This document shows, in pieces, positions 5,300-56,258 of a stretch of 64,000 bases of DNA. The position numbers and the translations under genes were made by a program. Location of the stretch: NCBI GenBank assembly GCA_005879315.1, contig VBLC01000046.1, positions 132,701 to 196,700 on the forward strand, in the 5' to 3' direction. Within the stretch, counting starts at the first letter, position 1. Every line of letters starts with the position of its first letter. The DNA is from Deltaproteobacteria bacterium. Lineage in GTDB: Bacteria > Myxococcota > Myxococcia > Myxococcales > 40CM-4-68-19. The notes beneath the pieces were generated by a model. That model was not told the DNA's origin and did not search any database. It saw nothing but the letters and a program-made list of their open reading frames with translations.

Positions 5300-7291
5300 G
5301 TGGGGAGATCCCTGCGCGCGATCTACATCCTTGCCGTCGTTGCGCTGGCGGCGGCCGAAGCACGCGCCCAGCGGATGTCGGACAAGTCGGCGCCTCCGCC
5401 CGCGCCGCTGGTGACCGCGCCCGTGCCGCAGCCCGTGCCGGCGGCGACGGGCACCGGCGGCATCATCCTGCCGACGGAGAAGAGCTCCGACCTCCAGCAG
5501 CACTGGAACGCGCGCCGCGACTACCTGCGCGACCGCGACGAGCACCGCGCCGACGACGAGGAGCAGCGCGTCCGCCAGCTCAAGGACGACCTCGCCATCG
5601 AGAATCTCTTCTTCATCTCCGGCGCGCTGGTGCGCGAGAGTCAGCAGGCGCTTGCGGCCGGAGCGCCGGCGCTGGCGGTGACGCGCTGCAAGCATGCGGT
5701 GGAGTTCGCCCCGGCGATGGCCGAGGCGCACAGCTGCCTTTCGCGCGCGCTCCTGGCCGAGAACATTTTCTCCCTCAAGTCCGCCGCCAGTGAATCGTTC
5801 GCCGCAGCCTCGGCGACGATGGCCGATCCGCGCTCGGGGCATGCCCTCCTCGCCAATGTCCTCGGCGTGCTCTTCATCGGCCTGCTCGCCGCCGGAGTCA
5901 CCTTCGCCCTGGTGCTCTTCATCCGCTACGCGCAGCTCTACGCGCACGACGTGCATCACCTCTTCCCCCTCGGCGCGCGCCGCTGGCAGACGGCGATGCT
6001 GGCGGCGGTGCTGATCCTCCTGCCGCTCCTTCTCCAGCTGGGGCCGGTGCCGCTGATCTTCACTGCGCTGCTCGCCTGCGCGCTCTATACGACCACGCTG
6101 GAGACGGTGATCGCCTGCGCGCTCTTGCTCATGCTGGCGGCCTCGCCCTGGATGGCGCAGGCGATCGGTCGCGTCGCCGCTTTCGGCGGATCGGCGCTCG
6201 ACGTCTGGCTCGTCGAGCACGGCCCGGGATCGCCGCCCGAGATCGCCCGGCTGCAGAAGCGGCTCGAGTTCGGCAACGACCTGGCGGTCGATTTCGCCCT
6301 GGCGCGCAAGGCGAAGCGCGACGGCGACTTCGCCACGGCCGAGAAGCTCTATCTGCGCGCGCTGGAAGTCCCAGGCGCCAGCTCCTCGGGGTTGGCGGCG
6401 GTGCGCAACAACCTGGGCAACGTCTATCTGCTCGAAGGGGAAACCAGCAAAGCTCTGGCCCAGTACCAGCAGGCCATGGACCTGCGCGAAAGCATGGCCG
6501 CGCCGCACTTCAACATGAGCCGCGCGCTCAACCTCGGCGGGGTGGATACGCTGGAGAAAGTCCAGGCCGAGCAGGCGCGCGCGCTGGAGCTGGGCCGCGA
6601 GGCCGTCGATCGATTCACCGCCGGCCAGCTGCAGGCGAACAAGAAGTCGAACAAGTTCGTCATGGACATCGCGCTCGACGACGCGCTGCTCGAGCCCTTG
6701 CTCGAGGCGGAGGAGCGCGTCGCCGATGGAGTGGCCGATGAAGTCCGCTCCCAGCTGGCCGGGCCGCTGAGCAACGAGGTCGCGTTTCTCCTTCCGCTCG
6801 TCGCCGGCGGCCTTTTCCTGCTCCTGCGCGCGGCGCGCGGCCGGATCAGGCCGAGCAACCGCTGCGAGCGCTGCGGCCGCGAGGTGTGCCGGCGCTGCGA
6901 TGCCGAGGCGCGCCCGCAGGAGCAGCTCTGCGCCCAGTGCGTCAACGTCTTCATCCGCCGCACCGGGGTCGATCCGGCCGAGCGCCTTCGCAAGGAGTAC
7001 GCGGTTCACGCCTATCACCGGCGCCGCGAGACCACCGCGCGCGTTCTCGGCCTCGTCTCCGGCGCAGGGCACGTCATGCTCGGCTATCCCCTGCGCGGCA
7101 TCGTCTTCATGCTGGTGACGGCGTCGCTCGCGGCGAGCCTGCTCCTCTGGCGCGGCCTGGCGCGCGATCCGGTGGCGGTGCGCCAGGGCGTCTCGCTCCT
7201 GCGCATCGCCGCCAGCGCCCTCTGCCTCGTCGCCGTCTACGTCTTCTGCCTGCGCGATCTCCTCGCCCGCCAGCGCGCCGAGGGGGCCTAG
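5300..7291 (+). CDS. Membrane protein with signal peptide, TPR repeats and B-box-like Cys cluster
   Basis: N-terminal signal; TM block; TPR (VRNNLGNVY...A..Y); CERCGREVCRRC...CAQC; C-terminal TMs. Confidence 0.8.
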   Translation: MGRSLRAIYILAVVALAAAEARAQRMSDKSAPPPAPLVTAPVPQPVPAATGTGGIILPTEKSSDLQQHWNARRDYLRDRDEHRADDEEQRVRQLKDDLAIENLFFISGALVRESQQALAAGAPALAVTRCKHAVEFAPAMAEAHSCLSRALLAENIFSLKSAASESFAAASATMADPRSGHALLANVLGVLFIGLLAAGVTFALVLFIRYAQLYAHDVHHLFPLGARRWQTAMLAAVLILLPLLLQLGPVPLIFTALLACALYTTTLETVIACALLLMLAASPWMAQAIGRVAAFGGSALDVWLVEHGPGSPPEIARLQKRLEFGNDLAVDFALARKAKRDGDFATAEKLYLRALEVPGASSSGLAAVRNNLGNVYLLEGETSKALAQYQQAMDLRESMAAPHFNMSRALNLGGVDTLEKVQAEQARALELGREAVDRFTAGQLQANKKSNKFVMDIALDDALLEPLLEAEERVADGVADEVRSQLAGPLSNEVAFLLPLVAGGLFLLLRAARGRIRPSNRCERCGREVCRRCDAEARPQEQLCAQCVNVFIRRTGVDPAERLRKEYAVHAYHRRRETTARVLGLVSGAGHVMLGYPLRGIVFMLVTASLAASLLLWRGLARDPVAVRQGVSLLRIAASALCLVAVYVFCLRDLLARQRAEGA

Positions 7292-7294
7292 CCG

Positions 7295-8446
7295 ATGGCT
7301 CTCTCCGGCACCCTCAAGGATTTCGGCATCGCCGACATCCTCCAGCTGATCGGCCACCAGACCAAGACGGGCCGGCTGAGCATGAGGAGCGGCAACGAGG
7401 AGGTGGAGGTCTTCTTCATCGAGGGCAACGTCGTCTTCGCCAGCGAGAAGGCGCGCAAGTCTTCCAACCTGCTCGGCGCCCTGCTCTTGCGCGCCGAGCT
7501 GCTCACCCAGCAGCATCTCGACGAGGCCCTGGCGACGCAACAGCGCACCTTGAAGCGGCTCGGCGACATCCTCGTCGATGGAGCGATCGTCACCCAGCAG
7601 CAGCTGGCGCAGATGATGCGGCTGCAGACCACCGAGACGCTCTACAAGCTCTTCGCCTGGAAGAACGGCTGGTACGAATTCTCCCAGGAGGACGTCGACA
7701 ACTCGCGCAGCACCTTCGACGCCATCCGCGCGGAGAGCATCCTCCTGGAAGGCTTCCGGCGCATGGACGAGTGGCCGCAGGTCCGCAAGAAGGTGCCCTG
7801 GACCGACGCCACTTTCGAGAAGCTGAAGGAGCTCGACACCCGCGACCTTCCCTCCATCGACGACGGGGGCCTCGGCCTCGATGGCGCGGCGGAGATCGAC
7901 AAGCCCGCCGAGAAGCACAAGCTCGTCTACAAGCTCGCGGTCAACGGCAAGGACGTGCAGAAGATCATCGACGCCAGCCGGCTCGGCGAGTTCGAGGCTC
8001 TCAAGGCCCTGAGCGAGCTGATGGAATGGGGCTTCCTCAAGCCCCTGGCCCCCGAGCGGGGCGCGAAGGCGCTGGCGGCGGGCTTCAAGGCGCAGACCAA
8101 GAAGCTGACGGGAGCGGGGGCGATCGTCCGGCTGGCGCTCTCCTTCGCCTTCTTCGTTGCGACGCTCTTCGTCGTCCGCTGGGTCGCGCCGCAGCTGGGC
8201 TCGGCGCGGCCCGAGAATCCCGCCCGCCACGGAGCGCTGGCGCGGGTCATCGCGCACGACCAGCTGGTCCGGCTGGAAAATGCGCTCGAGCTCTACAAGA
8301 CGGAGCACGGCGACTATCCGCAGGCCTTGAAGCAGCTCGTCGAGGGACAGCTGCTCTCGGACCAGGACCTGCGCTATCCGTACCGGGAGCTCTACTACTA
8401 TCGTCGGACGCCGCAGGGGTTTGTATTACTGCCTCCTCTTGATTAG
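7295..8446 (+). CDS. DUF4388 domain protein with TM helix and GspG/pseudopilin-like C-terminus
   Basis: LSGTLKDFGIADILQLI...KTGRL (DUF4388); LGALL/LGDILV repeats; LENALELYKTEHGDYPQALKQLV. Confidence 0.8.
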   Translation: MALSGTLKDFGIADILQLIGHQTKTGRLSMRSGNEEVEVFFIEGNVVFASEKARKSSNLLGALLLRAELLTQQHLDEALATQQRTLKRLGDILVDGAIVTQQQLAQMMRLQTTETLYKLFAWKNGWYEFSQEDVDNSRSTFDAIRAESILLEGFRRMDEWPQVRKKVPWTDATFEKLKELDTRDLPSIDDGGLGLDGAAEIDKPAEKHKLVYKLAVNGKDVQKIIDASRLGEFEALKALSELMEWGFLKPLAPERGAKALAAGFKAQTKKLTGAGAIVRLALSFAFFVATLFVVRWVAPQLGSARPENPARHGALARVIAHDQLVRLENALELYKTEHGDYPQALKQLVEGQLLSDQDLRYPYRELYYYRRTPQGFVLLPPLD

Positions 8447-8483
8447 ATCAGACGAGAGGCCCGATCCCGGGCCCAGGAGCTGG

Positions 8484-9452
8484 ATGGCCGAACCATCTGC
8501 GCGGCTGGAGCTGCTCGACAACGATGGCGCACGAACTCTCGCCGGAGGGCGGAGCGAGAACCTCAAGCTGATCGAGCAGAGGTTCGGAGTTCACATCGGA
8601 CAGCGTGGCAACGTCTTTCTCATCTCGGGTGAGCCCGACAAGGTCGTGCTCGCCGAGAAGCTGCTCGGCCAGCTCAACGAGCTGATCCAGCGCAAGTACC
8701 CGTTGGGGCTGGAGGACGTGGAGCAGGCGAGCAAGGTCATGCTGGCCGATCCCGCCGCCGATCTCAAAGACATCTTCCTCGACACCATCTACGTCACCAA
8801 CCGCAACCGGCCGGTGACGCCGAAGGGCTTCAACCAGAAGGCGTACATCGACGCCATCCGCAAGCACGACATCGTCTTCGGCGTCGGCCCGGCCGGCACC
8901 GGCAAGACCTACCTGGCGATGGCGATGGCGGTCGCGGCGCTCGTCGAGCGACGGGTGAAGCGCATCGTGCTCTGCCGGCCGGCGGTCGAGGCGGGAGAGA
9001 AGCTCGGCTTCCTTCCCGGCGATCTCGCCGAGAAAGTCAGCCCCTACCTGCGGCCGCTCTACGACGCGCTCCACGACCTGATGGACATGGACCGCGCCCA
9101 GGACCTGGTCGAGCGGGGCACGGTGGAAGTGGCGCCGCTCGCCTTCATGCGCGGCCGCACCTTGAACGACGCCTTCGTCATCCTCGACGAGGCGCAGAAC
9201 ACCACCACCGAGCAGATGAAGATGTTCCTCACCCGCCTGGGCTTCGGCTCCAAGGCGGTCATCACCGGCGACGCGACGCAGACCGACCTGCCCGCCGGCA
9301 AGGCCTCGGGCATGCTCGAGGCGCGCGTCATCCTCCGCGACATCGAGGGCATCCGCTTCTGCGAGTTCACCGACAAGGACGTCGTCCGCCACCCGCTGGT
9401 CCAGGAGGTGGTGCGAGCCTACGATGCGGCGACGGTGAACAAGAAGGGTTAG
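8484..9452 (+). CDS. phoH: PhoH-family ATPase (YbeZ-like)
   Basis: GPAGTGKT, RPAVEAGEKLGFLPG, FMRGRTL, DEAQN, DVVRHPLV. Confidence 0.95.
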   Translation: MAEPSARLELLDNDGARTLAGGRSENLKLIEQRFGVHIGQRGNVFLISGEPDKVVLAEKLLGQLNELIQRKYPLGLEDVEQASKVMLADPAADLKDIFLDTIYVTNRNRPVTPKGFNQKAYIDAIRKHDIVFGVGPAGTGKTYLAMAMAVAALVERRVKRIVLCRPAVEAGEKLGFLPGDLAEKVSPYLRPLYDALHDLMDMDRAQDLVERGTVEVAPLAFMRGRTLNDAFVILDEAQNTTTEQMKMFLTRLGFGSKAVITGDATQTDLPAGKASGMLEARVILRDIEGIRFCEFTDKDVVRHPLVQEVVRAYDAATVNKKG

Positions 9453-43418: not shown

Positions 43419-43533
43419 GGGGCAGCGCGAATAACACGCGGGCAGCGAGGCGGCAAGGCCGGGCGGCTGCCGGCCCGCCCGCTTTCCGGCCGTGCGCGGA
43501 ACTGGTAAAGTTTCTCTCGGGGGAGCGCGAAGA

Positions 43534-44358
43534 ATGCCCGGCGCGGCGAGGCTCGGAGACAAGGCCCAGGTGCAGGCGGACGCCCACGGCTGCCCGGCCT
43601 GTCCTCATCCCGGGACGGGGCCCATCGTGGTGGCGTCGACGAATGTCTTCGTCAACAGCAAAGGCGCGGCGCGCAAGAAAGACCTGGGCATCCATGCCGC
43701 CTGCTGCGGACCGAACCTCTACAACATCAAGGAAGGTTCCCCCACCGTCTACGTCAACGGCCAGCCCATGGCCCGCATGCAGGATGGTACCAAGCACTGC
43801 GGCGGCGACGGCAACATTACCGAGGGGTCTCCCGACGTGCTCATCGACGACGGCGCCAGCGGCGCCGGCCTGGGCAGCTACCTCGTCAACGCCACCAAGA
43901 TCCTGCTGGAGAAAACCGCGGCGACCAAGGCGGCGCAGGCGAAAAAGATCTCCGACACGCACAAGGGCGGAGAGCCGGCGAAGGGCGGCGGCCGCGATCT
44001 CGCCAAGGACGAGAAGCCGGCGAAGAAGTCGGGCTCGATCACCGCCGCCAGGTGGGCCGTGCAGCGCGCCGCCAACGGACAGGAAGTCGAGCTGCACATC
44101 GAGACCCAGGACGGCAAGGGCCAGCTCACCATCGAGATCTGGGCGCAGAGCGCCGACCGCACGCAGGACAAGAAAGTGAAGAGCGAGAGCGCCTCGGCCG
44201 GCAAGAGAGTGAAGAAGAAGATCAAGCTGGCGATCCCGCCCGATGCTGCGGCGGGCAACGAATGCTCCTTCTACTTCGTCGTCAAGGACGAGGAGGGCGG
44301 CGAGCAGAGAAGCGATCCGCTCTTCGTCGACCGCGCGCCCTTCAAGTTCTCCGTCTGA
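43534..44358 (+). CDS. PAAR-domain protein with Lys-rich linker and beta-rich C-terminal extension
   Basis: GAARLGD, GAARKKD, PMARMQD repeats; HGCPACPH, GSPTVYVNG, GSPDVLI. Confidence 0.9.
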   Translation: MPGAARLGDKAQVQADAHGCPACPHPGTGPIVVASTNVFVNSKGAARKKDLGIHAACCGPNLYNIKEGSPTVYVNGQPMARMQDGTKHCGGDGNITEGSPDVLIDDGASGAGLGSYLVNATKILLEKTAATKAAQAKKISDTHKGGEPAKGGGRDLAKDEKPAKKSGSITAARWAVQRAANGQEVELHIETQDGKGQLTIEIWAQSADRTQDKKVKSESASAGKRVKKKIKLAIPPDAAAGNECSFYFVVKDEEGGEQRSDPLFVDRAPFKFSV

Positions 44359-44384: not shown

Positions 44385-45095
44385 TCACATTTCGATGAGG
44401 CCTTTGCGCAGGCCCTCGGTGACGGCCTCGACGCGGTTGGTGACGTCGAGCTTCTCGTAGATGTGCTCGAGATGCGTGCGCACGGTGGCGCGCGAGAGGC
44501 CGAGGACCTGCGCGGCCTCCTTGTTCGAGAGGCCCTTGGCGATGAGGCGGAGAATCTCGATCTCGCGCTCGGTGAGCGGCCGCATGGGGGGTTCTTCGCG
44601 GTGGCCGGGCGGCAGCGGCGCCTTCTCCGGCGGTGCACCTTCCTCCGGCACGTGGAAATGCCGCAGCAAGCGCCGCGCGAGATTGGGCTGGATGATCGTC
44701 CCGCCCGCCTTCACCTCGCGGATGGCCTCGATCACTTTCTCCGACGGCGCGCCCTTCAAGAGATATCCGCTGGCGCCGGCCTTGACGGCCTCGATGACCT
44801 TCTCCTCTTCGTCGAAGATGGTGAAGACCAGCACCTCGATCTGGGGCCAGCGCTTCTTCACCTGGCGCGTGACCTCGATGCCGGTCATCCGCGGCAGGCC
44901 CAGGTCCTGGAGGATGACGTCGGGCGGCGGCTGCTTCTTCTCGAGGAGCTCCAGCGCGGCTTCGCCCGAGAGCGCGGTGCCGACCACCTCGATCTCCGGC
45001 GACTCCTGGAGGATCTTGAGCTGGTTCTTGAGGATCTGCGGCTGGTCCTCGACGATCAGGACCCTGATCCTCGGTGCTGCGGTTGCGGCGCTCAT
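44385..45095 (-). CDS. NarL/LuxR-family response regulator
   Basis: IVEDQ, QDLGLP, GASGYLLK, LTEREIEILRLIAKGLSNKE. Confidence 0.93.
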   Translation of the reverse strand: MSAATAAPRIRVLIVEDQPQILKNQLKILQESPEIEVVGTALSGEAALELLEKKQPPPDVILQDLGLPRMTGIEVTRQVKKRWPQIEVLVFTIFDEEEKVIEAVKAGASGYLLKGAPSEKVIEAIREVKAGGTIIQPNLARRLLRHFHVPEEGAPPEKAPLPPGHREEPPMRPLTEREIEILRLIAKGLSNKEAAQVLGLSRATVRTHLEHIYEKLDVTNRVEAVTEGLRKGLIEM

Positions 45096-46414
45096 CTCGG
45101 TAGCTCCTCTCCGGCGTAAACGGTCAGCTCGATGCACGTCCCGTGGCCGGGCTCGGACGTCATCCGGATCTGTCCACCGACTTTGTGGGCGCGCTCGCGC
45201 ATGTTGGCGAGCCCATAGTGTCCGTCGCGCGAGAGAGCGGCCGGCTCCTTGGGAAGGGCGAAGCCGTTGCCGCGGTCCTGCACGGTGAGCCGCGCCGAGC
45301 CGGAGGTGAAGGTGAGAGTGACCTCGACCGGCGTCCCCTTGCCGCAATGCTTGCTCACGTTGGTGAGCGATTCCTGCAGCACGCGGAAGAGAGCGAGCGC
45401 GCTCTCGGGCCCGACCTGCCGCTCGCGGCCGACGCGCGAGAAGCGCACCTCCAGCCGATGCCGGCCGCTCGCCATCTTGCAGTAGTCCGCGAGCGTGGCG
45501 ACGAGGTCGAAGTCCTCCTTCATCATCCGCAGCGAGCGGCGCAGCTCGTCCATCGAGTCTTCCGCCGCCTGGTGCAGGTCGGAGATCTCCTTGCGGATGG
45601 TGGGGAGGATGGCCGCGCGGGCCTCGCTCGTGCCCTGCAGGCGCGAGCGCACTTCCGAGCCGTCGATCATGTTGAGCAGATACTCGCTCTGGATGGCGAC
45701 CGAGCTGAGCACTCCGCCCAGGCCGTCGTGGATCTCGCGCGCCAGGCGATTGCGCTCTTCCATCACCGCCATCTCCTTCAGCGCGAGCGAGAGCTTCTGC
45801 AGCTCGCGGTGCTTCATCCTGTCGCGCTCGTTCAGATAGACCATGACGTAGACGAGGATGCAGTTGATGGCCGAGTACCAGAGCAGGATGAAGATGTCGA
45901 CCTGCACGACCGCGTGGCCGCCGAGGAGCTGATCGAGCTTGGCTACCGCCGGGAAGGTGAGCAGCGGCGGCACCACCGAGAGCGGAGTAGGGAAGAGCAC
46001 GACGAAGAGCGTGGTGAAGAGCAGCTGCGCCGCGAGCAGCGGGCTGCGCAGGCCGCCGGTGACGCTCACCAGCCAGACGAGAACGCAGAGGTCGGCGCAG
46101 AGCGTGATGAAGGTGAGCGCGCGGCCGACCTTCTTCCTCGGCAGGAAGACGTAGTTGGCTGCGCTGTAGGCGACCATCACCAGATACACGGCGAAAGCGC
46201 CAGGCCCGCCGACGCCGAACGCCTGCGACCAGGCGGGCACGCCGATGACTCCGAGGCCGAGCACGAGGAAGGCGAGCCGGGCGTAGAAGAGAGCGCGCGC
46301 CCGGGTGATGAAGCGGTCCTCGGTGAACCGGGTGGCGCCGCCGATCTCCAACTTGCCGCCGAACAGACCGCCGCCCCGCGCGGGAGGGAGCACGGCAGCG
46401 GTCGTTTCGCTCAC
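45092..46414 (-). CDS. Membrane histidine kinase (HisKA_3 type)
   Basis: ERNRLAREIHDGLG, QESLTNVSKH, DRGNGF, GHYGL.NMRER. Confidence 0.93.
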   Translation of the reverse strand: MSETTAAVLPPARGGGLFGGKLEIGGATRFTEDRFITRARALFYARLAFLVLGLGVIGVPAWSQAFGVGGPGAFAVYLVMVAYSAANYVFLPRKKVGRALTFITLCADLCVLVWLVSVTGGLRSPLLAAQLLFTTLFVVLFPTPLSVVPPLLTFPAVAKLDQLLGGHAVVQVDIFILLWYSAINCILVYVMVYLNERDRMKHRELQKLSLALKEMAVMEERNRLAREIHDGLGGVLSSVAIQSEYLLNMIDGSEVRSRLQGTSEARAAILPTIRKEISDLHQAAEDSMDELRRSLRMMKEDFDLVATLADYCKMASGRHRLEVRFSRVGRERQVGPESALALFRVLQESLTNVSKHCGKGTPVEVTLTFTSGSARLTVQDRGNGFALPKEPAALSRDGHYGLANMRERAHKVGGQIRMTSEPGHGTCIELTVYAGEELPR

Positions 46415-46453: not shown

Positions 46454-46705
46454 CTACCGATCGGCGGCGCAGGCGGCCGCGATCTCGGGGTGGCGCTCGC
46501 GAATGTAATCGAGGCGGTCGCGCGACTTGCCGGTCTTCTCGTCGAAGAGAGGCGTGCCGCCGGCGTAGACGGTGTCCTTCGGATCGCCGAAGGAATTCAG
46601 GCCGCGAGCCGTCAACTGCGCGTCGAGGCAGGAGGGGGGCGCGGCCGCACGCTCCTGTGCCCGCTGGCAGGAACAGAGCAGCAAGAAGACAACCGCAGTG
46701 CGCAT
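46454..46705 (-). CDS. Small lipoprotein
   Basis: Lipobox-like LLCSC; LNSFGDP...YAGGTPLFDE. Confidence 0.65.
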   Translation of the reverse strand: MRTAVVFLLLCSCQRAQERAAAPPSCLDAQLTARGLNSFGDPKDTVYAGGTPLFDEKTGKSRDRLDYIRERHPEIAAACAADR

Positions 46706-46722: not shown

Positions 46723-47349
46723 GTGACGCCGCTTCTGCGATGGGACAGCGCGCTGCTCAAGCTCGAGCTTCTCGGCGACCCGCGTCTGGCCTGGCCCGGC
46801 GGAGTGACGCTCTCGGGCAACCAGGCGCTGGCGGCGGCGCAGTCTGCGCGCGGGCTCATCGCAGTCGCGCTGCGCGGGGTGGTGACGCACGAGATGCGCC
46901 AGGCGCTGCGGCTTTGGGGAGCGACGCTGCTGCCTTCTGCGCCGCCCGCGCCGGATCTGTCGGCGGAGTTCGCGCGCACGCTCGGGACGGAGCTGGCCGC
47001 CGAGCTTTCGCAGGAGCCGCCGCTTCTCGTCGCTCCCGCAGGTGAAGCGTCGATGCTGCTCGGCGCGCTGCGCGCATTGCGGGCGAGATGGCCGAAAGTG
47101 CGCGGCGTGGCTTTGGTCGCTGGCGACGAAGAGCTCCCCGATCTGCCCCGCGAGGCTCCCGAGGGAGTGGACCGGCTCGCCATCTCCTGCGCTCAGGCTC
47201 GCGACGCTCGTGCGAGAGTCGCGCGCGAGCTGGGTCTTCTCGCCGGCCATGCCTCGGCTGCGGCAGCGGCGTATGCGCAAGAGCACGGGGGAGTCGCTCT
47301 CGTGACCGGACCGGGCGAGCGCGAGTTCTCCCTCGATCCTCCGAGATGA
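46723..47349 (+). CDS. Degenerate, shortened cysteine-synthase-like (PLP fold II) protein lacking the PLP lysine
   Basis: TPLLR..LLKLE, SGN, ARELGLLAG.AS.AA, GERE.S align with CysK/M, but NPGGSVKDR and GTGGT are absent. Confidence 0.65.
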   Translation: MTPLLRWDSALLKLELLGDPRLAWPGGVTLSGNQALAAAQSARGLIAVALRGVVTHEMRQALRLWGATLLPSAPPAPDLSAEFARTLGTELAAELSQEPPLLVAPAGEASMLLGALRALRARWPKVRGVALVAGDEELPDLPREAPEGVDRLAISCAQARDARARVARELGLLAGHASAAAAAYAQEHGGVALVTGPGEREFSLDPPR

Positions 47350-47993
47350 AGACGATTCTCATTCTCGGTGTCGGTGGCCTGGGGTGCCCCGCTGCGCTCG
47401 CGCTGAAAGAGGCTGGTGTGCCGCTGCGGCTGGTATTGGTCGACCCCGATCGGGTCGAGCGCTCGAACCTGGCTCGCCAGATCCTCTTCAGCGAAGCGGA
47501 CGTCGGCCAGCCCAAGGCGGAAGTCGCCGCGCGGAAGCTGGGAGCCGAGGCGCGCGTCCTGCGCTTCGAGCCGTCTACAGCGGCAGACTTGCTCCGGGGC
47601 TGCGACGTCCTCCTCGACGGCACCGATGACTTCGCCACGCGCTTTCTCGCCAACGACGAGGCCGTCCGGCGCCGGATTCCATTGGTGCACGGCGCCGCGC
47701 TCGGCTGGACCGGCCAGCTTCTCACTGTCCTCCCTGGCCGCAGCGCCTGCCTGCGCTGCTTCTTCGAAGGGCCGCCGGCGCCGGGTGCGCTGCCTACCTG
47801 CGCGGAGGCGGGCGTGCTCGCACCTCTCTGTGGAGCCGTCGGCGCCGCCATGGCCGAGGCGGCCCTGGCTGTCCTCTCGGGCAAGGCGAAGGCGGGCGTC
47901 CTGCGCCGCTGGGATGCCCGGCGCGGAGCCGAGCGTCCGCTGGCGCTCCGCCGCGATCCGCTCTGCGCCGTCTGCGCAGGCGTGGCATCCTAG
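47346..47993 (+). CDS. ThiF/MoeB-family E1-like adenylyltransferase (N-terminally shortened, no rhodanese)
   Basis: GVGGLG, DRVERSNLARQ, DGTDDFATR, CLRC, TCAEAGVL, CAVC. Confidence 0.92.
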   Translation: MKTILILGVGGLGCPAALALKEAGVPLRLVLVDPDRVERSNLARQILFSEADVGQPKAEVAARKLGAEARVLRFEPSTAADLLRGCDVLLDGTDDFATRFLANDEAVRRRIPLVHGAALGWTGQLLTVLPGRSACLRCFFEGPPAPGALPTCAEAGVLAPLCGAVGAAMAEAALAVLSGKAKAGVLRRWDARRGAERPLALRRDPLCAVCAGVAS

Positions 47994-48007
47994 AGGCGGA
48001 GGAACCG

Positions 48008-48289
48008 ATGCCCATCACCGTCAAGATTCCCGCGCCGCTCCGGTCGCTGACCGCCAACCAGAGCGAAGTGGCCGTCGAGAACGCGGCCACCGTCCAGGAC
48101 GCCCTGGAAGAGCTGTCGCGCAAATACCCGGGGCTCAAGGACCGCTTGCTCGACGAGAAGGGCGCCCTGCGCCGCTACGTGAACCTGTTCCGCAACGACG
48201 AGGACATCCGCCACGGCCGGGGGCTGGCCACGTCGCTCGCGGAGGGCGACAAGCTCACCATCGTGCCGGCCATCGCGGGCGGATGCTGA
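48008..48289 (+). CDS. MoaD/CysO-family ubiquitin-like sulfur carrier ending AGG-C
   Basis: VKIPAPLR..T, YVNLFRNDEDIR, IVPAIAGGC. Confidence 0.93.
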   Translation: MPITVKIPAPLRSLTANQSEVAVENAATVQDALEELSRKYPGLKDRLLDEKGALRRYVNLFRNDEDIRHGRGLATSLAEGDKLTIVPAIAGGC

Positions 48290-48588
48290 GTCCCGAGCAG
48301 CAGGAGCGGTATTCGCGCCATCTCCTTCTCGACGGGCTCGATCAGGAGAAGCTGCTGGCCGCGGCCATCCGCGTCCGCGGCACGACCCGCGCGGCGCGCT
48401 GGGCCGCGAGGTATCTGGCGGCGAGCGGGGTGGGTCGGCTCATCGTCGACGAGCCCTCCTGGGAGCCTGAGTTGCGCGCGCTCGGCCCGTGGCTGCAGCT
48501 GGGCGGCGAGGCGCGCATGGAGATCGCGCCGCAGGGCGAACCCTTCGACGGCGCCTGGGCTGCGCTGGAAGTCGTGCGTGGTCTTTGA
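48283..48588 (+). CDS. Mini ThiF/MoeB paralog (101 aa) with RYSRH helix but degenerate P-loop
   Basis: MLSPEQQERYSRHLLL..QEKL...RVRGTTRAA..YLAASGVGRL; overlaps both neighbours. Confidence 0.75.
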   Translation: MLSPEQQERYSRHLLLDGLDQEKLLAAAIRVRGTTRAARWAARYLAASGVGRLIVDEPSWEPELRALGPWLQLGGEARMEIAPQGEPFDGAWAALEVVRGL

Positions 48589-49465
48589 TTCCCTCGCCGG
48601 CGCAGTCGGCAACACCCCTTTGGTGAGGCTGAGATCGCTCGAGCCCGGCGGGGTGGAGATCCACGCGAAATTGGAGTGGTTCAATCCCGGCGGCAGCGTG
48701 AAGGACCGCGCCGGACTGCAGATCATCCGCGAGAGCGTCGAGAAGCTGCGCGGCCGGACGTTGATCGACTCGACCAGCGGCAACACCGGGATCGCCTACG
48801 CCTGGATCGGCGCGGCGCTGCGCGTGCCGGTGGCGCTGGTCATGCCGGAAAACGTGTCTGAAGCGCGCAAGCGCATCGTCCGCGCCTTTGGAGCGCAGGT
48901 CATCTATTCCGATCCGCTCGAGACCTCCGACGGCGCCATCCGCCTGGCGCGCCAGCTGGTGCGCGAGCAACCCGATCGCTGGTTCTACGCCGATCAGTAC
49001 TCCAACGAAGCGAACCCGCGCGCCCACGAGCTGGGCACGGCGCGAGAGATCTGGGACCAGACCGGCGGCCGGGTGACTCATGCAGTGGTCGGAATCGGCA
49101 CCGGCGGCACCATCATGGGAGTCGGCCGCGGCCTGCGCGCGCGCAACCGGCGCGTGCAGATCGTCGCCGTCGAGCCGGCGGAAGCGCTTCACGGCCTGGA
49201 GGGCCTCAAGCACATGCCCTCGTCGATCGTGCCCGCCATCTACAAGGAGTCCGAGCTGGACCGGAAGCTCTCGATCCCCACCGATGCCGGCTGGGACATG
49301 GCCGAGCGGCTCGCGCGCGACGAGGGCCTCTTCGCCGGCCACAGCGCCGGCGCGGCCGCCTTCGGCGCACAGCTGGTGGCGCGCGAGATCGCCGAGCGAG
49401 GCGAGACCGGCGTCGTCGTCACGCTGTTCCCCGACCGCGCCGACCGTTACATTGCCCCGGCATGA
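48578..49465 (+). CDS. cysM: Cysteine synthase CysM-type (PLP-dependent)
   Basis: GNTPLV, KLEWFNPGGSVKDR, STSGNTG, GIGTGGT, HGLEGLK. Confidence 0.9.
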   Translation: MVFDSLAGAVGNTPLVRLRSLEPGGVEIHAKLEWFNPGGSVKDRAGLQIIRESVEKLRGRTLIDSTSGNTGIAYAWIGAALRVPVALVMPENVSEARKRIVRAFGAQVIYSDPLETSDGAIRLARQLVREQPDRWFYADQYSNEANPRAHELGTAREIWDQTGGRVTHAVVGIGTGGTIMGVGRGLRARNRRVQIVAVEPAEALHGLEGLKHMPSSIVPAIYKESELDRKLSIPTDAGWDMAERLARDEGLFAGHSAGAAAFGAQLVAREIAERGETGVVVTLFPDRADRYIAPA

Positions 49466-49905
49466 TCGCGCCGGAGGTGCTCCGCCAGATCGCCGCGCAC
49501 GCGCGCTCGACCTATCCGGCCGAGTGTTGTGGGCTCTTGTTGCGCGACCGGAGCGGCGCGATCTCTTTCCGGCCGATCCCCAACATCGCCGGCTCGCCGG
49601 AAGCGCGGCCCACCAGCTCGCGCACCGCTCGCGACGGATATGTGATGGATCCGAAGGCGCTGCTTTCGGCAATGCAGGAAGGCGACCTTTGGGCCATCGT
49701 CCATAGCCATCCTGACGTCGGTGCCTATTTCTCTAAAGAAGACAGAGACATGGCGCTAGGCGATGGGGAGGAGCCACTCTGGCCCGGCGTGCGATATCTG
49801 GTCGTTTCGGTGCGCGCCGGGCGCGTGGAGGGCGCCCGCATCTATACCTGGGATAGTTCCCGCGGCGATTTTGCAGAAGAAGAAGTTATCGGAATAATCG
49901 AATAG
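49462..49905 (+). CDS. JAB/MPN+ (Mec+-like) metallopeptidase
   Basis: YPAECCG, IVHSHPD..AYFS.ED (JAMM motif). Confidence 0.93.
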   Translation: MIAPEVLRQIAAHARSTYPAECCGLLLRDRSGAISFRPIPNIAGSPEARPTSSRTARDGYVMDPKALLSAMQEGDLWAIVHSHPDVGAYFSKEDRDMALGDGEEPLWPGVRYLVVSVRAGRVEGARIYTWDSSRGDFAEEEVIGIIE

Positions 49906-49957
49906 ACATTCATTAGGCGCGAATGTATGGTGCGCCAATCTCTTGGAGCGCACCGCG

Positions 49958-50749
49958 ATGAATCTCGGCAGCTCGTCGAATGGCTTCACCGTCTGGTTTA
50001 CCGGAATGAGCGGCGCCGGCAAATCGACGCTGGCGCAGGGTCTGGCTAACCGCCTGCGACGACTGGGGAAAATAGTCGACGTGATGGACGGCCCGGAAGT
50101 CGAGCAGATGCTCGGGGTCGGCAAGGGCGGCACCAAGGACGAGCGCAATGCCGAGGCGCGCAAGCTGGCCTGGGTTTGCAAGCTCGTGACGCGGGGCGGC
50201 GGAACCATTCTGCAATCGGCCATCGAGAGTCCCTATCGCGAAACCCGCGACGAGGCGCGGCGGCAGATCGGCCGGTTCGCCGAGGTCTTCGTGGAGTGCC
50301 CCATCGAAACACTCATCCATCGCGACCGGAGCGGCCGCTACAAGCGCGCGCTCGCCGGCGAGTTGAAGACGCTCGTCGGCATCACCGAGCCTTACGAGCC
50401 GCCGGTGCATCCGGAGGTGGTCGTCGACACCAGCAAGCACTCGGTCGACGAAGCCGTCGAACACATCCTCGGCCAGCTCGTCGCGCAGCGGCTGCTCGAT
50501 CCGGAGTTCGCCGCCTTGAAATCGCGGCCGCGCCTGCAGGCGCGCGCGCCGCTGCCCGAGCAGCCGAAGCCTGCGGCGGCGAAGGTGGAGAAGCCTCGTC
50601 TCGCCAAGGTGAAGAAGCTGCGGCAGCACAAGGCGGCCAAGCCTTCCAAGCCGGCCAAGGCGCAGCGGCGGGCGCCGGCGCGCAAGTCGGCGGCCGCGCG
50701 CACGGCGCGGGTGGGGCCACAGCGGCGCGGCGGAAAGCGCAAGCGCTGA
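49958..50749 (+). CDS. cysC: Divergent adenylyl-sulfate kinase-like protein with Lys/Ala/Arg-rich tail
   Basis: TVWFTGMSGAGKST, SPYRETR, FAEVFVECP, GITEPYEPP; LDGD replaced by MDGP; about 80-aa basic tail. Confidence 0.75.
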   Translation: MNLGSSSNGFTVWFTGMSGAGKSTLAQGLANRLRRLGKIVDVMDGPEVEQMLGVGKGGTKDERNAEARKLAWVCKLVTRGGGTILQSAIESPYRETRDEARRQIGRFAEVFVECPIETLIHRDRSGRYKRALAGELKTLVGITEPYEPPVHPEVVVDTSKHSVDEAVEHILGQLVAQRLLDPEFAALKSRPRLQARAPLPEQPKPAAAKVEKPRLAKVKKLRQHKAAKPSKPAKAQRRAPARKSAAARTARVGPQRRGGKRKR

Positions 50750-50752
50750 GCC

Positions 50753-51568
50753 ATGCTGCAGGCCAAGCGCGAGGCGGCGCTGCAGCGCCTGCGCGGGCTG
50801 GGCAGCGCGCTGGTGGCCTATTCGGGCGGCGTTGATTCGGCGCTGCTCCTGGCGCTGGCGCGCGAGGCCTTGGGAGCGCGAGCCGTCGCTTTCACCGCCG
50901 TTTCGCCGGCCGTGGCGCCCGATGAGCTGGAGGGCGCGCGCTCTCTCGCGCAGGAGCTGGGCGTCGAGCACGTCGAGCGCGCCTCGGGTGAGCTGGAGGA
51001 TCCCCACTACGCTCAAAATCCCGTCGACCGCTGCTACTTCTGCAAGACCGAGCTGTACCGGCTGGCCGAAGACGAGGCCCGGGCGCGCGGGCTCGCCGCC
51101 GTCGTGGCGGGGACGAATGCGGATGAGCTCCTCGACTACCGCCCAGGCCTGCGCGCAGCGCATGAGCACCAGGTGGTCCAGCCGCTTGCCGAGGCGGGGT
51201 TGAGCAAGGCGGAGATCCGCCAGCTGAGCCGCGAGATGGGCCTGCCCACCTGGGACAAGCCGCAGCAGCCCTGCCTCTCCTCGCGCATTCCCTACGGCAC
51301 GGAGGTGACGGCCGAGCGGCTCGCCCAGCTGGCGCGCAGCGAGATGGCCCTGCGCGCTCTCGGTCTGCGCGAATTTCGCGTCCGGTACCACGGCGACGTC
51401 GCCCGCATCGAGGTCGCCGAGGGAGAGCTGGACCAGCTCCTGCGCGTCCGCGACCAAATCGCGCGAGTTCTAAAAGAATCCGGCTTCAAGTTCGTCAGCC
51501 TCGACCTCGAGCCCTTCCGCAGCGGCCGGCTCAACGAAGCGGCTGGCCTCGTGCCTCTCCGCCGCTGA
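50753..51568 (+). CDS. larE: LarE-family ATP-dependent sulfur transferase
   Basis: AYSGGVDS PP-loop, RCYFCK, GTNADE..DYRPG, PCLSSRIPYG, RVRYHG..ARIE. Confidence 0.93.
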   Translation: MLQAKREAALQRLRGLGSALVAYSGGVDSALLLALAREALGARAVAFTAVSPAVAPDELEGARSLAQELGVEHVERASGELEDPHYAQNPVDRCYFCKTELYRLAEDEARARGLAAVVAGTNADELLDYRPGLRAAHEHQVVQPLAEAGLSKAEIRQLSREMGLPTWDKPQQPCLSSRIPYGTEVTAERLAQLARSEMALRALGLREFRVRYHGDVARIEVAEGELDQLLRVRDQIARVLKESGFKFVSLDLEPFRSGRLNEAAGLVPLRR

Positions 51569-51654: not shown

Positions 51655-54129
51655 ATGCCTATCGTCTCGTCCAGTCCGCGCGGCAAGCGGGTCCGCCTCG
51701 CCCTCGCCGCAGCGCTGCTCGCCGCCGGCTGCTCGGGCGGCGGCGGGTGCGGCACCTCCTGCGGCGGCGCTTTCAAGGCGGTCGACGAGCAGGGCCATCC
51801 CATCCAGTTCACCGGCGCGCGCCTCGACAACGTCGCGCAGGTCCGGCTGACCCGGAGCGGCTTCAACTTCCTCAACGCCAGCCACCTGAACGAAATCCTC
51901 GGCGCCCTCAACTCCGGCGCCGGCCTCTCCATGCCCTGCATCGAGAAGGACGCCCTTCTCGACGCCTGCCTCGGCAGCTTCGGCCTGCGCTTCAGCGTCC
52001 TCGCCGGCGACACCAACTTCAACGGGTCCTGCGACGCGGCCGACTCGACCCCGCTGCACATCGCCTTCAAGGACGTGAGCTGGATTCTCCTTCCCCCCGG
52101 CACGCTGCGGGCGCACATCGTCCTGCACCTCAAGACCGGGGACATCTACCTGCGCACCAAGGAGGAGCACAGCACGCTCTGCGGTGGCACGAGCGCCATC
52201 CAGCTGCGCGCCTTTTACGACGACGAGCTCCCCGGGCTGCCGGAGAAAGACACGGTGGTCGACCTCGACCTCGGCTTCAGCACCGCTCCGGACGGAAGGC
52301 TGCAGATCAATTTTCCCAACGCCTCGCTCGACGCCATCGTCGCGAACTTCCAGCCGGGAGCACTCTGGCTCGACGGCAACGTCGGCACCGATCCGCCCAT
52401 CGCCCCGAACGCGGCCGGCAAGTACTTCGGCAACGGGTGCGATTCGAGCGCCCGTGGCACCTACGCCGTGACCAAGAATGGTGGCGCGCAGCTGAGCTGC
52501 TCGCAGGTCTTCACCGACTTGTCCGCCGGCTGCGATCCGAACGGCAGCAACGGCGCCCTCTGCGGCATCGTCGAATATGTGCGCGGCTCTCTCTTCGATG
52601 ATCTCAAGAACCATTTCGCGAGCCACATCGTCAGCGTGCTGCGCGCGCAGCTCGACAACCTCCGCTGCCAGCGCGCGAGCGACAGGCAAAGCAGTCCAGT
52701 CGCGTGCGACGGCAATCATCCCTGCCCAGCCGACGACGACGGCCACGCCCTCGCTTGCGATCTCGCGCGCGGCGTCTGCTACTCGCCCGCGGCAGGCACC
52801 GGCAACTTCAACTGCGAGCCGATCCCGCTGGCCATCGCCGGGCAGCTCGACGTGAGCCACCTCACCGAGAGAGTCGGCTTTCCGCCCGAGACGAAGCTCG
52901 ACATCTTCGCCGGCCTGGGGAGCAAGGGCGCGGCGGGCCTCGTTGACGGCAACGGGCTGCAGCTCTCGGCCCAGGCGGGGACGGCGCCCGCCTCGCCGCT
53001 CCTGGCGCTTTGCGTGCCGCCCGCGCAGCAGGCTTCCGCGGTCGACCCACCGCCGATGGATTTCGAGGCCAACAAGCCCGCCGGCGTCACCAGCTACGAT
53101 GCCGCTTTCTCTCTCGCCGGCGCGATGCTCAACCGCGGTTTTCTCGACGCCTACCATGCTGGCCTCCTTTGCGTGGCGGTGACCCACAAGACCACGCCGT
53201 ACATCTCCAGCGGGCTGTTCAGGCTCTTCCTGCCTTCGCTGGGGCTGGTCACTGGCGACAAAGAGGTGCCGATGAACGTCCTCTTCCGGCCCACCCAGCC
53301 GCCCTACGTGCGCGTCGGCCGCAACACCACCAAGGTCAATCCCGACGGGAGCATCACGCCGGACGATCCGCTGCTCACGCTGGCTTTCAAGCAGCTCGAG
53401 GTCGACTTCTATGCGCTCGTCGACGAGCGACAGGTCCGTCTCTTCACGCTGCAGGCCGACCTGCAGCTGCCGCTCGGCATCCGGACTTTTGCCGAGCCGA
53501 ACGCGGACACGCTGCAGCCCGTGCTGGGCGGGCTCGAGACCCTGCTCACCAACGTCTCGGCGCTCTCGCCCGACGGCGGCCCCTATGGCCCGAGCGATCT
53601 GCTCGCGGAGGATCCGGGCGCGCTCAAGGACCTGCTTGCGGCGGTGTTGCGATTGGCGCAGCCGCTGCTCGCCGGCGTGATCAAGCCGATGGTGCTGCCG
53701 ACCATGCTCGGCCTGCGCTTCGGGGTCGAGGGCATCGCGGGCGCCGTACCGATGACGGACGTCGGGAGGGGCGGCTATCACCATCTGGCGCTTTGGGCGA
53801 ACGTGAACGAGTGTGGGAGCTCCTGCGCGCCTCGCACCGTGCGCACCGAGGCGCGAGTGGCGAGCGCCCAAGCCCCGGCAAGCCTGGAAAGGGCCCTGCG
53901 TCCCGAGCTCGAGATGGAACTCTTCTCACAGGCGCGCTGGGCAGAGTTCAGCTATCGGGTCGACGGCTCGCTCTGGTCGCCCTGGATCGGAAATGTCTCG
54001 CGGCTGACCATCCACGATCCGCTCTTCCTCCTGCCGGGGCATCACCTCGTCGAGGTCACCTCGCGCGAGGCTGGTGACGACCGGACCATGGACCGCGAGC
54101 CGGCGACGGTGGACTTCGTCGTCAACTGA
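51655..54129 (+). CDS. Large Cys-rich lipoprotein, possible LBP/BPI-like fold with C-terminal Ig-like domain
   Basis: Lipobox AAGC; NVAQVRLTRSGFNFL; many Cys; FSYRVDG..WSPW...GHHLVEV. Confidence 0.6.
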   Translation: MPIVSSSPRGKRVRLALAAALLAAGCSGGGGCGTSCGGAFKAVDEQGHPIQFTGARLDNVAQVRLTRSGFNFLNASHLNEILGALNSGAGLSMPCIEKDALLDACLGSFGLRFSVLAGDTNFNGSCDAADSTPLHIAFKDVSWILLPPGTLRAHIVLHLKTGDIYLRTKEEHSTLCGGTSAIQLRAFYDDELPGLPEKDTVVDLDLGFSTAPDGRLQINFPNASLDAIVANFQPGALWLDGNVGTDPPIAPNAAGKYFGNGCDSSARGTYAVTKNGGAQLSCSQVFTDLSAGCDPNGSNGALCGIVEYVRGSLFDDLKNHFASHIVSVLRAQLDNLRCQRASDRQSSPVACDGNHPCPADDDGHALACDLARGVCYSPAAGTGNFNCEPIPLAIAGQLDVSHLTERVGFPPETKLDIFAGLGSKGAAGLVDGNGLQLSAQAGTAPASPLLALCVPPAQQASAVDPPPMDFEANKPAGVTSYDAAFSLAGAMLNRGFLDAYHAGLLCVAVTHKTTPYISSGLFRLFLPSLGLVTGDKEVPMNVLFRPTQPPYVRVGRNTTKVNPDGSITPDDPLLTLAFKQLEVDFYALVDERQVRLFTLQADLQLPLGIRTFAEPNADTLQPVLGGLETLLTNVSALSPDGGPYGPSDLLAEDPGALKDLLAAVLRLAQPLLAGVIKPMVLPTMLGLRFGVEGIAGAVPMTDVGRGGYHHLALWANVNECGSSCAPRTVRTEARVASAQAPASLERALRPELEMELFSQARWAEFSYRVDGSLWSPWIGNVSRLTIHDPLFLLPGHHLVEVTSREAGDDRTMDREPATVDFVVN

Positions 54130-54965: not shown

Positions 54966-56258
<1,293 letters not shown>

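Follow-up and report, generated by a model that had tools for sequence, protein, structure and literature searches.

A ubiquitin-like sulfur-carrier gene cluster of the Myxococcota with a putative two-gene E1 and a terminal LarE gene

In Mycobacterium tuberculosis, the ubiquitin-like protein (Ubl) CysO, the cysteine synthase CysM, the peptidase Mec+ and the E1 enzyme MoeZ form a pathway to cysteine, in which Mec+ cleaves a CysO-cysteine adduct. Asymmetric E1 pairs, i.e., SAE1-UBA2 and APPBP1-UBA3, are known from eukaryotes. Iyer, Burroughs and Aravind described in 2006 operons in which a ThiS/MoaD-type Ubl, a JAB peptidase and a rhodanese-less E1 occur together with SirA, with cysteine synthase or with genes of sulfate assimilation, among them that for adenylylsulfate kinase (PMC1779556). 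Further likenesses come from LarE of Thermotoga maritima, a CxxC..C type protein that binds a [4Fe-4S] cluster and received its sulfur from IscS in vitro; passages of the same source liken LarE to TtuA, which takes sulfur from the thiocarboxylate (-COSH) of the Ubl TtuB (PMC9283937). For the E1 enzymes, Arg11 of ThiF and Arg14 of MoeB are described as arginine fingers supplied by the neighbouring subunit, and in yeast Tcd1-Tcd2 a dead paralog donates this finger (PMC13139853). Here, we analyzed a cluster of eight genes (g1-g8; positions 46723-51568) in a 64-kb window, which is the whole stretch of DNA under study and part of contig C113 of a Myxococcota genome (G000; 4.43 Mb, 125 contigs, 97.55%-complete). 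The closest public relatives of this genome are soil metagenome-assembled genomes (MAGs) labelled Myxococcales or Deltaproteobacteria. We read the cluster, with a confidence that is about evenly balanced, as a Myxococcota elaboration of the ThiS/MoaD-E1-JAB-SirA sulfur-assimilation operon, in which a two-gene E1 serves a carrier that delivers sulfur both to CysM and to LarE. All eight genes point in the same direction, and their predicted products are as follows, where APS stands for adenylylsulfate, PLP for pyridoxal phosphate and SAMP for small archaeal modifier protein:

46723..47349, + strand: g1, pseudo-cysteine-synthase with a reduced PLP fold, 208 aa; Pfam PALP 32.2 bits (cut-off 35), profile positions 143-275 only
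47346..47993, + strand: g2, catalytic ThiF/MoeB-type E1, 215 aa; ThiF 181.7 bits from profile position 22
48008..48289, + strand: g3, CysO/SAMP-like Ubl, 93 aa; ThiS 62 bits, NCBIfam SAMP1 78 bits; ends in AGGC
48283..48588, + strand: g4, mini pseudo-E1, 101 aa; no Pfam match; NCBIfam MoeB/ThiF on residues 2-56 (model about 5-61)
48578..49465, + strand: g5, CysM-type cysteine synthase, 295 aa; PALP 222.9 bits; TIGR01138 (cysM) 316.7 bits, below the cut-off of 394
49462..49905, + strand: g6, JAMM/JAB peptidase (Mec+/desampylase-like), 147 aa; Prok-JAB 70.4 bits
49958 (or TTG 49943)..50749, + strand: g7, APS-kinase paralog; Pfam APS_kinase 132 bits
50753..51568, + strand: g8, LarE, PP-loop sulfur insertase of the CxxC..C type, 271 aa; TIGR00268 316.6 bits (cut-off 150)

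Open reading frames, Pfam and NCBIfam confirmed the gene list and the tight spacing given in the initial annotation, which had been made from the letters of the sequence. From g1 to g8, the junctions are a 4-bp overlap, a 14-bp gap, overlaps of 7, 11 and 4 bp, a 52-bp gap and a 3-bp gap; the largest of these runs from g6 to the ATG of g7 at 49958 and would measure 37 bp with the alternative TTG at 49943.

The operon types 4c/4e of the 2006 survey share with this cluster the Ubl, the JAB peptidase and the rhodanese-less E1 next to cysteine synthase and adenylylsulfate kinase, and SirA/TusA is found in relatives (PMC1779556). In contrast to these operons, the cluster contains no ATP sulfurylase, phosphoadenylylsulfate (PAPS) reductase or transporter, and its kinase has lost the APS motifs; furthermore, the E1 is split, a pseudo-PLP gene is added and LarE stands at the end. 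Type 4e is described as always having SirA/TusA in the neighbourhood, whereas the source cluster has no TusA. The term "PP-loop" does not occur in the main text of that paper. The initial annotation had noted that the extra genes are not part of the M. tuberculosis pathway. Because an operon type that pairs Ubl, JAB and E1 with adenylylsulfate kinase had already been described, g7 is a repurposed relic of that operon's kinase rather than a wholly foreign addition. The M. tuberculosis CysO-CysM-Mec+-MoeZ system resembles the cluster in that g3 has CysO as its best solved match, the Gly-Gly-Cys end of the g3 precursor corresponds to the CysO-cysteine adduct cleaved by Mec+, and CysM adjoins the JAMM peptidase; it differs in that the E1 of the cluster has neither rhodanese domain nor N-terminal helix and in that CysM is absent from the clusters of most relatives.

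The gene set is conserved well beyond the source genome. In the source family, 11 of 11 loci, drawn from five genera, carry the complete set in the same order. A search with g7 gave 28 species-representative loci, of which 16 contain the full set in order and nine more are cut by contig ends and agree as far as visible, eight being cut upstream and one (L052) ending after g1-g7. The remaining three deviate: L062 carries a g1-like gene, E1, TusA, Ubl, pseudo-E1, CysM, JAB and g7 before the locus ends, and L041 and L060 are without CysM, no g1 being found in either. LarE was found in 262 of the 301 Myxococcota genomes sampled (including one unpublished, G210). We sampled 20 Myxococcota LarE loci from eight families and found Ubl-system genes directly upstream of LarE in 15 and the kinase paralog in 14. 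The 15 Ubl-linked loci include TusA in the cluster in 12 cases and CysM in only two. In family f6 (L102-L107, five of them in one-contig genomes), the order is E1-(TusA)-Ubl-pseudo-E1-(JAB)-kinase paralog-LarE with neither CysM nor g1, and tblastn detected no TusA in L105 and no JAB in L107. It is still seen when LarE identity has fallen to 50-60%, in another order or class (L114, L118). A check for co-loss of the cluster in four LarE-less Myxococcales genomes used the pseudo-E1 of L102, which did not retrieve even the cluster copy that the control genome G160 is known to have. The constant set comprises E1, pseudo-E1, JAB, kinase paralog and LarE, and CysM and g1 come and go together: g1 was found where CysM is (family f1, L062, L075, L118) and was not found where CysM is missing (L041, L102-L112). 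Conservation of the neighbourhood across the Myxococcota, which the initial annotation had named as a check, was borne out, as the extra genes g1, g4, g7 and g8 accompany the core across family, order and class. The opposite pattern, in which the extra genes are dispensable and a core of four is kept, was not found because the variable part is CysM and not the extra genes.

The most unusual part of the cluster is its E1. g2 aligns to residues 30-245 of the 251 residues of Escherichia coli ThiF (1zud; E 7e-35), and in this alignment it retains GxGGxG, the SNLxRQ arginine, the DxTD aspartate, two CxxC zinc pairs and the TCAEAGV cysteine. The first 29 residues of ThiF have no counterpart in g2, i.e., the N-terminal helix with the RYxRQ arginine finger is missing. 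There is no C-terminal rhodanese domain either, leaving the ThiF domain only (MoeZ model 137 bits, cut-off 647). An in-frame upstream RYxRQ was absent in 36 of 37 distinct cluster-E1 contexts, g2 included; in this survey, the extended frame of seven loci contained no GxGGxG, and in a few contexts the GxGGxG that served as anchor was a chance occurrence. The sole exception was L089, a Ubl-E1 fusion at a second locus.

The missing segment has a match in g4. This protein, in which the arginine-finger helix at the N-terminus is joined to a small E1-like core, aligns to residues 7-58 of ThiF and 5-66 of Uba4 with its Arg12 at the position of ThiF Arg11, and its GxGxxG motif is degenerate. Arg12 is invariant in 35 of 35 mini-E1 sequences (alignment A3), and the arginine is kept in 40 of 42 distinct pseudo-E1 N-termini (36 by pattern match, four by eye), a set in which two entries (L089, L114) are ordinary full-length E1s. 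Homologs of g4 numbered 270 at E ≤ 1e-3 among 284 candidates in the range of 55-177 aa, and the 120 matches listed measure 63-125 aa. The structure model of g4 reached a mean predicted local distance difference test (pLDDT) score of 88.7, with 61-67 for the N-terminal residues 1-20. Its top Foldseek matches were all E1 enzymes, SAE1 chains among them (E 7e-4 to 2e-2, TMq ~0.5). In other Myxococcales, the pseudo-E1 has about 200 aa, with the CxxC pairs kept and the SNLxRQ region missing, compared to 101 aa in the family of g4. L114 (family f10, same class) has an ordinary unsplit E1, and at L022 (G009, 5304-5919) E1 matches lie in two frames that join near 5437, by frameshift or assembly error. 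By sequence, g2 and g4 are complementary in their loss and retention of the arginine-finger helix. In the asymmetric E1 pairs, including Tcd1-Tcd2 (PMC13139853), a dead paralog contributes the arginine finger that makes the active site of its live partner complete. Unlike the eukaryotic pairs, the live subunit here physically lacks the helix, the dead subunit has only 101 aa, and the chemistry would be that of a sulfur carrier, with no E2.

At the other end of the cluster, g8 matches LarE of Lactiplantibacillus plantarum (5udq; E 5e-51) and contains SGGVDS, RCYFCK, PCLSSR and RVRYH. The cysteines C94, C97 and C174 are shared by all nine Myxococcota LarEs of alignment A1, and by this cysteine motif g8 is predicted to be a LarE of the [4Fe-4S] type, a class as defined in PMC9283937. 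It shares CxxC..C with T. maritima LarE, and its SSR and RVR segments also align with the L. plantarum protein; the donor of T. maritima LarE is IscS in vitro. The source genome has no LarE other than g8. LarB (C52:33570-34196, 267 bits), LarC (C52:32839-33324, 185 bits) and a LarA-family Lar_N domain (C43, 118 bits) are encoded on other contigs, and LarB was found in 75 of 101 sampled Myxococcota genomes, in the same families as LarE. Because LarB, LarC and LarA are present elsewhere in the genome, g8 is predicted to serve the synthesis of the nickel-pincer cofactor. We also considered a LarE acting outside the nickel-pincer pathway and set this aside, given the presence of LarB, LarC and LarA and the way in which LarB tracks LarE by family. 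A literature search of main texts returned no report linking LarE to a Ubl carrier, ThiF, TusA or MoeB, and a term search of PMC11796402 gave no mention tying LarE to a Ubl carrier. A close parallel is TtuA-TtuB (with TtuC) of Thermus thermophilus, which likewise joins a three-cysteine [4Fe-4S] PP-loop enzyme to a Ubl thiocarboxylate and a rhodanese-less E1; the likeness of LarE to TtuA is drawn in PMC9283937. In contrast to that system, the acceptor here would be pyridinium biscarboxylate mononucleotide instead of tRNA, and a contact of LarE with the Ubl is suggested by gene order.

Directly upstream of LarE, g7 aligns to solved APS kinases and keeps the P-loop GMSGAGKST and the lid. The motifs LDGDxxR, LGF and DRxxNxRR have roles in APS binding and catalysis. 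In g7, the canonical LDGDvvR, LGF and DRdxNiRR are replaced by MDGPEVE, KGG and ERNAEARK; in the motif alignment of 49 loci, the canonical LDGDvvRt..LGFS.EDRd.NiRR reads MDGPEVEQ..KGGTKDERNAEARK in g7. Cluster-linked homologs in this alignment are equally without the canonical motifs, the position of the second Asp varying between P, D, E, A, G and Q. Homologs outside the Myxococcota mostly keep the motifs, three Planctomycetota rows reading LDSGRIR. In a tree of 67 rows, from which eight of 74 supplied loci are missing (no match at E ≤ 1e-15, or an alignment of less than 140 residues), 46 cluster-linked rows fall on one side of a branch with support 98/92, and four canonical Myxococcota kinases that keep the motifs group with other phyla. 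An ESM Atlas search with g7 returned APS-kinase clusters only. The C-terminus of g7 (50540-50749) encodes a basic Lys/Ala/Pro-rich tail of about 70 aa, and tails of variable length occur on the orthologs of L075, L102, L114 and L060.

No source of APS for g7 (ATP sulfurylase, Sat or CysD) was found in its genome. g7 is the sole APS-kinase-like gene of the source genome, and neither ATP sulfurylase (PF01747) nor PAPS reductase (PF01507) had a match anywhere in the 97.55%-complete genome, extending to the genome the lack of an ATP sulfurylase that had been noted for the window. The window has no sulfite reductase either, as the initial annotation stated; the only NIR_SIR match of the genome lies on another contig (C88:10351-11517, in a 1029-aa open frame). 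A lone NIR_SIR protein without ATP sulfurylase and PAPS reductase hints at sulfite or another reduced compound as the sulfur source. Four complete genomes with PAPS_reduct genes carry a canonical kinase elsewhere and the paralog beside LarE. The source genome and G026 have the paralog only and no PF01507 match, the PF01747 search having covered the former. L118 (family f14) encodes at 7697-8980 a JAB peptidase fused to PUA_2, which in ATP sulfurylase forms the N-terminal domain; this fusion occupies the slot of the kinase paralog immediately before LarE. We also considered g7 as a serine kinase that makes O-phosphoserine for CysM and set this aside, as g7 stays with LarE in loci without CysM.

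The carrier g3 has M. tuberculosis CysO (3dwg_C) as its best PDB match over the full length (E 3.8e-19), and it combines the beta-grasp match with a C-terminal Gly-Gly, the sequence ending in AGG and then Cys. Across 38 distinct homologs, the tails end in GG (17), GGC (7), GGR (6) or, once each, GGWI, GGWS, GGLR, GGA and GGAHAR, and three have no GG end. The translation of g6 contains ECCG and HSHPDVGAYFSKED, the latter fitting the HxHx7Sx2D part of the JAMM metal-site motif E...HxHx7Sx2D. In CysK/CysM, SVKDR holds the PLP lysine, TSGNTG forms the Asn loop and GTGGT the Gly loop. g5 retains GGSVKDR, TSGNTG and GIGTGGT in the alignment to solved cysteine synthases (including 9nld), and the CysM-type cysteine synthase is apparently intact. 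g1 has lost the same features. The SVKDR lysine is absent in 10 of 10 g1 homologs that cover the segment, A, S, D, E, H or Y standing in its place (alignment A4, 14 homologs); the segment is deleted in three A4 rows, g1 included, and the fragmentary row L027 has no coverage. The loops of g1 are degenerate as well (TSGNTG to LSGNQ, GTGGT to PAGEASM). The fold is kept: the AlphaFold2 model of g1 (pLDDT 88.0, predicted template-modelling score 0.84) had CysK, CysM and O-acetylserine sulfhydrylase (OASS) as best Foldseek matches in the PDB (E ~4e-9, TMq ~0.7). The labels of two dead paralogs and a degenerate APS kinase, as first proposed, hold in the alignments of the g1 lysine and of the g4 and g7 motifs.

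Put together, the cluster suggests the following route. g3 would be made with one residue past Gly-Gly, which g6, judged by its family, would trim. g2 and g4 would form an asymmetric two-gene E1 that adenylates the Ubl, g4 binding g2 and supplying the arginine-finger helix in trans; g4 would be a cut-down form of the dead paralog of about 200 aa found in other Myxococcales. Sulfur loading would then yield the thiocarboxylate Ubl-COSH, for which TusA is probably the donor in relatives that have it in the cluster, the TusA of the source genome lying elsewhere. From Ubl-COSH, CysM (g5) would make cysteine, as in M. tuberculosis, and g1, which co-occurs with CysM, is probably its non-catalytic partner. 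The same carrier would probably give sulfide to the open iron of the LarE [4Fe-4S] cluster, as TtuB-COSH does for TtuA, a step suggested by gene order, and the LarE-bound sulfur would end up in the two thiocarboxylates of the nickel-pincer nucleotide cofactor. g7 would be an old APS-kinase paralog that still binds ATP, is seemingly unable to bind or phosphorylate APS, and most likely acts as an accessory of the LarE step. In its most specific form, the proposal holds that the Ubl thiocarboxylate is the physiological donor for [4Fe-4S] LarE in Myxococcales, that the E1 is asymmetric and that the kinase paralog is an obligatory accessory; we advance this form tentatively, as possible and somewhat short of an even chance.

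Several observations weigh against this route. The link between carrier and LarE is drawn from gene order. In five of the 20 sampled Myxococcota LarE loci, there are no Ubl genes, kinase paralog, TusA or CysM nearby. TusA is not in the source cluster, and the only TusA of the genome follows gcvT-gcvH on contig C38, a context that does not indicate where the sulfur comes from. IscS serves as donor to T. maritima LarE in vitro, and the Ubl is therefore not a general requirement of LarE (PMC9283937). Among 79 LarE loci outside the Myxococcota, a ThiF gene is nearby in two and the kinase paralog in none. As regards the E1, the arginine finger of ThiF/MoeB is reported as catalytically non-essential (PMC13139853), one of the two remaining pseudo-E1 N-termini has Leu in place of the arginine (L075; the other was not captured), and the comparison of the g4 and g2 profiles with hhalign was not significant (probability 4%, 20 columns). 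Among solved structures, M. tuberculosis CysM (Rv1336) does not stand out by its closeness to g5. Adjacency is weaker evidence than it looks because synteny reaches past the cluster on both sides, with the upstream trio conserved in L102 and the downstream lipoprotein in L060 and L075. Finally, g7-g8 may form a separate transcript, given the following sites before g7:

49870..49931, + strand: two sigma-70-like promoter matches at the g6 end and in the g6-g7 spacer, by consensus match only

Two such sites were seen compared to 0.2 expected in shuffled sequence, and the local G+C around them falls to 0.64-0.67. The genes that flank the cluster are:

43492-44358, + strand: PAAR-motif protein, neighbour gene
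44385-45347, - strand: LuxR-type response regulator, divergent from the cluster
45092-46414, - strand: HisKA_3 histidine kinase, divergent from the cluster
46454-46705, - strand: small secreted protein, no Pfam family, divergent from the cluster
51655-54129, + strand: lipoprotein-like protein, 824 aa, no Pfam family; also follows LarE in L060 and L075
54148-54861, - strand: TruA-like pseudouridine synthase fragment, neighbour gene
54966-56258, + strand: ClpX, neighbour gene

The trio of secreted protein, histidine kinase and response regulator flanks the cluster also in G147 (L102 6273-8887). It may be the regulator of the cluster, or its position may simply reflect conserved synteny.

The foremost alternative is an ordinary CysO/CysM/Mec+ cysteine pathway, with g7-g8 as a separate unit, LarE drawing its sulfur from a cysteine desulfurase, and adjacency reflecting regional synteny or loose co-regulation. 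We consider this rather unlikely, though it fits the promoter-like sites, the flanking two-component system and secreted protein that are also syntenic in L102, the in vitro activity of IscS with LarE (PMC9283937) and the five Myxococcota LarE loci without Ubl genes. Gene pairs in other genomes point the same way: a canonical CysK lies immediately upstream of LarE in six of the 79 other-phyla loci (L122, L123, L125, L131, L144, L198; hosts are Binatia, Syntrophobacter and Geobacteraceae MAGs) and in two of three loci of family f12 (L116, L117), which suggests a link of LarE to cysteine instead of the Ubl. Against a separate unit, 13 of the 15 Ubl-linked LarE loci have no in-cluster CysM and yet keep E1, pseudo-E1, kinase paralog and LarE together in one direction; L114 and L118, at LarE identities of 50-60%, still show the arrangement. 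In the Archangiaceae MAG G041 (contig C192; L089/L096), CysM sits at a second locus beside a Ubl-E1 fusion (Ubl ending in ...AIAGG, a linker and a full-length E1 keeping RYSRH), whereas the truncated E1 stays with TusA, pseudo-E1, JAB, kinase paralog and LarE in a cluster that has no Ubl gene of its own.

The neighbourhoods outside the Myxococcota are diverse in other respects. LarB or LarC adjoins LarE in about a dozen of the 79 loci. In Desulfitobacterium (L170 6686-8637), TusA is directly upstream of LarE next to a divergent ThiF gene, and in Geosporobacter (L134 3396-6319) LarE is followed by NifU and a 489-aa ThiF-domain protein. SVKDR, TSGNTG and GTGGT are intact in the CysKs of L116, L117 and L122. 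The CysK-LarE pairing is recurrent, and we found no discussion of it.

A second alternative holds that the Ubl is mainly a protein modifier (SAMPylation/urmylation), with the E1 pair and JAB writing and erasing marks on CysM, LarE or other proteins and sulfur being secondary. SAMP1 is the best NCBIfam match of g3, g2 matches the SAMP-activating E1 model and keeps the cysteine aligned with the TCAEAGV/CRTAGV position of ThiF, g6 matches the desampylase model (40 bits, cut-off 130), and JAB is retained also in loci whose Ubl already ends in GG (17 of 38 distinct tails), where trimming is not needed. However, the cluster and its surroundings showed neither an E2 nor an E3 gene, the genes that accompany the Ubl encode sulfur enzymes and TusA, and the solved structure that g3 matches best is that of the sulfur carrier CysO; we regard this alternative as improbable.

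We estimated the ratio of nonsynonymous to synonymous substitution rates (dN/dS) by a rough Nei-Gojobori method in six pairwise comparisons of the window with L023, L024, L025, L031, L032 and L026, in which dS is 0.5-2.6 and thus close to saturation. Values were 0.29-0.42 for g1, 0.16-0.41 for g4, 0.12-0.27 for g7 and 0.10-0.26 for the remaining five genes, and all eight genes appear to be under purifying selection. That g1, g4 and g7 are decaying, functionless remnants of duplicated genes is very improbable: their catalytic motifs are lost, and they evolve faster than their neighbours (identities of 38-61% for g1 and 44-71% for g4, compared to 64-82% for CysM), but the open frames are intact in every complete locus, dN/dS stays at 0.16-0.42 for g1 and g4 and 0.12-0.27 for g7, residues of g4 are invariant over 35 sequences, the g1 and g4 models are confident and compact, and the g7 lineage spans the order and beyond.

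Overall, the initial interpretation of a complex that routes carrier sulfur to cysteine and to a LarE-made product was partly supported. The extra genes are conserved and under apparent purifying selection, and a link to a LarE-made thio-cofactor is plausible in view of the single LarE, the presence of LarB, LarC and LarA and the [4Fe-4S] type of g8. The features that merit work at the bench are the asymmetric two-gene E1 and a coupling to LarE that spans the order. In the split E1, nature has provided an experiment on the role of the N-terminal helix and arginine finger of ThiF/MoeB, and this E1 is also a bacterial parallel to the asymmetric E1s of eukaryotes. g7 presents a P-loop enzyme that has remained under strong constraint after the loss of its substrate site, in genomes unable to make APS. 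For the widespread Fe-S LarE, IscS has been shown as sulfur donor in vitro only, and the occurrence of Ubl, E1 and TusA beside LarE across a whole order offers a concrete hypothesis for the donor in vivo. If the proposed route is true, it would connect Ubl sulfur carriers to a nickel cofactor for the first time, and the Myxococcota would possess a bacterial sulfur-carrier E1 built like the heterodimeric E1s of eukaryotes.

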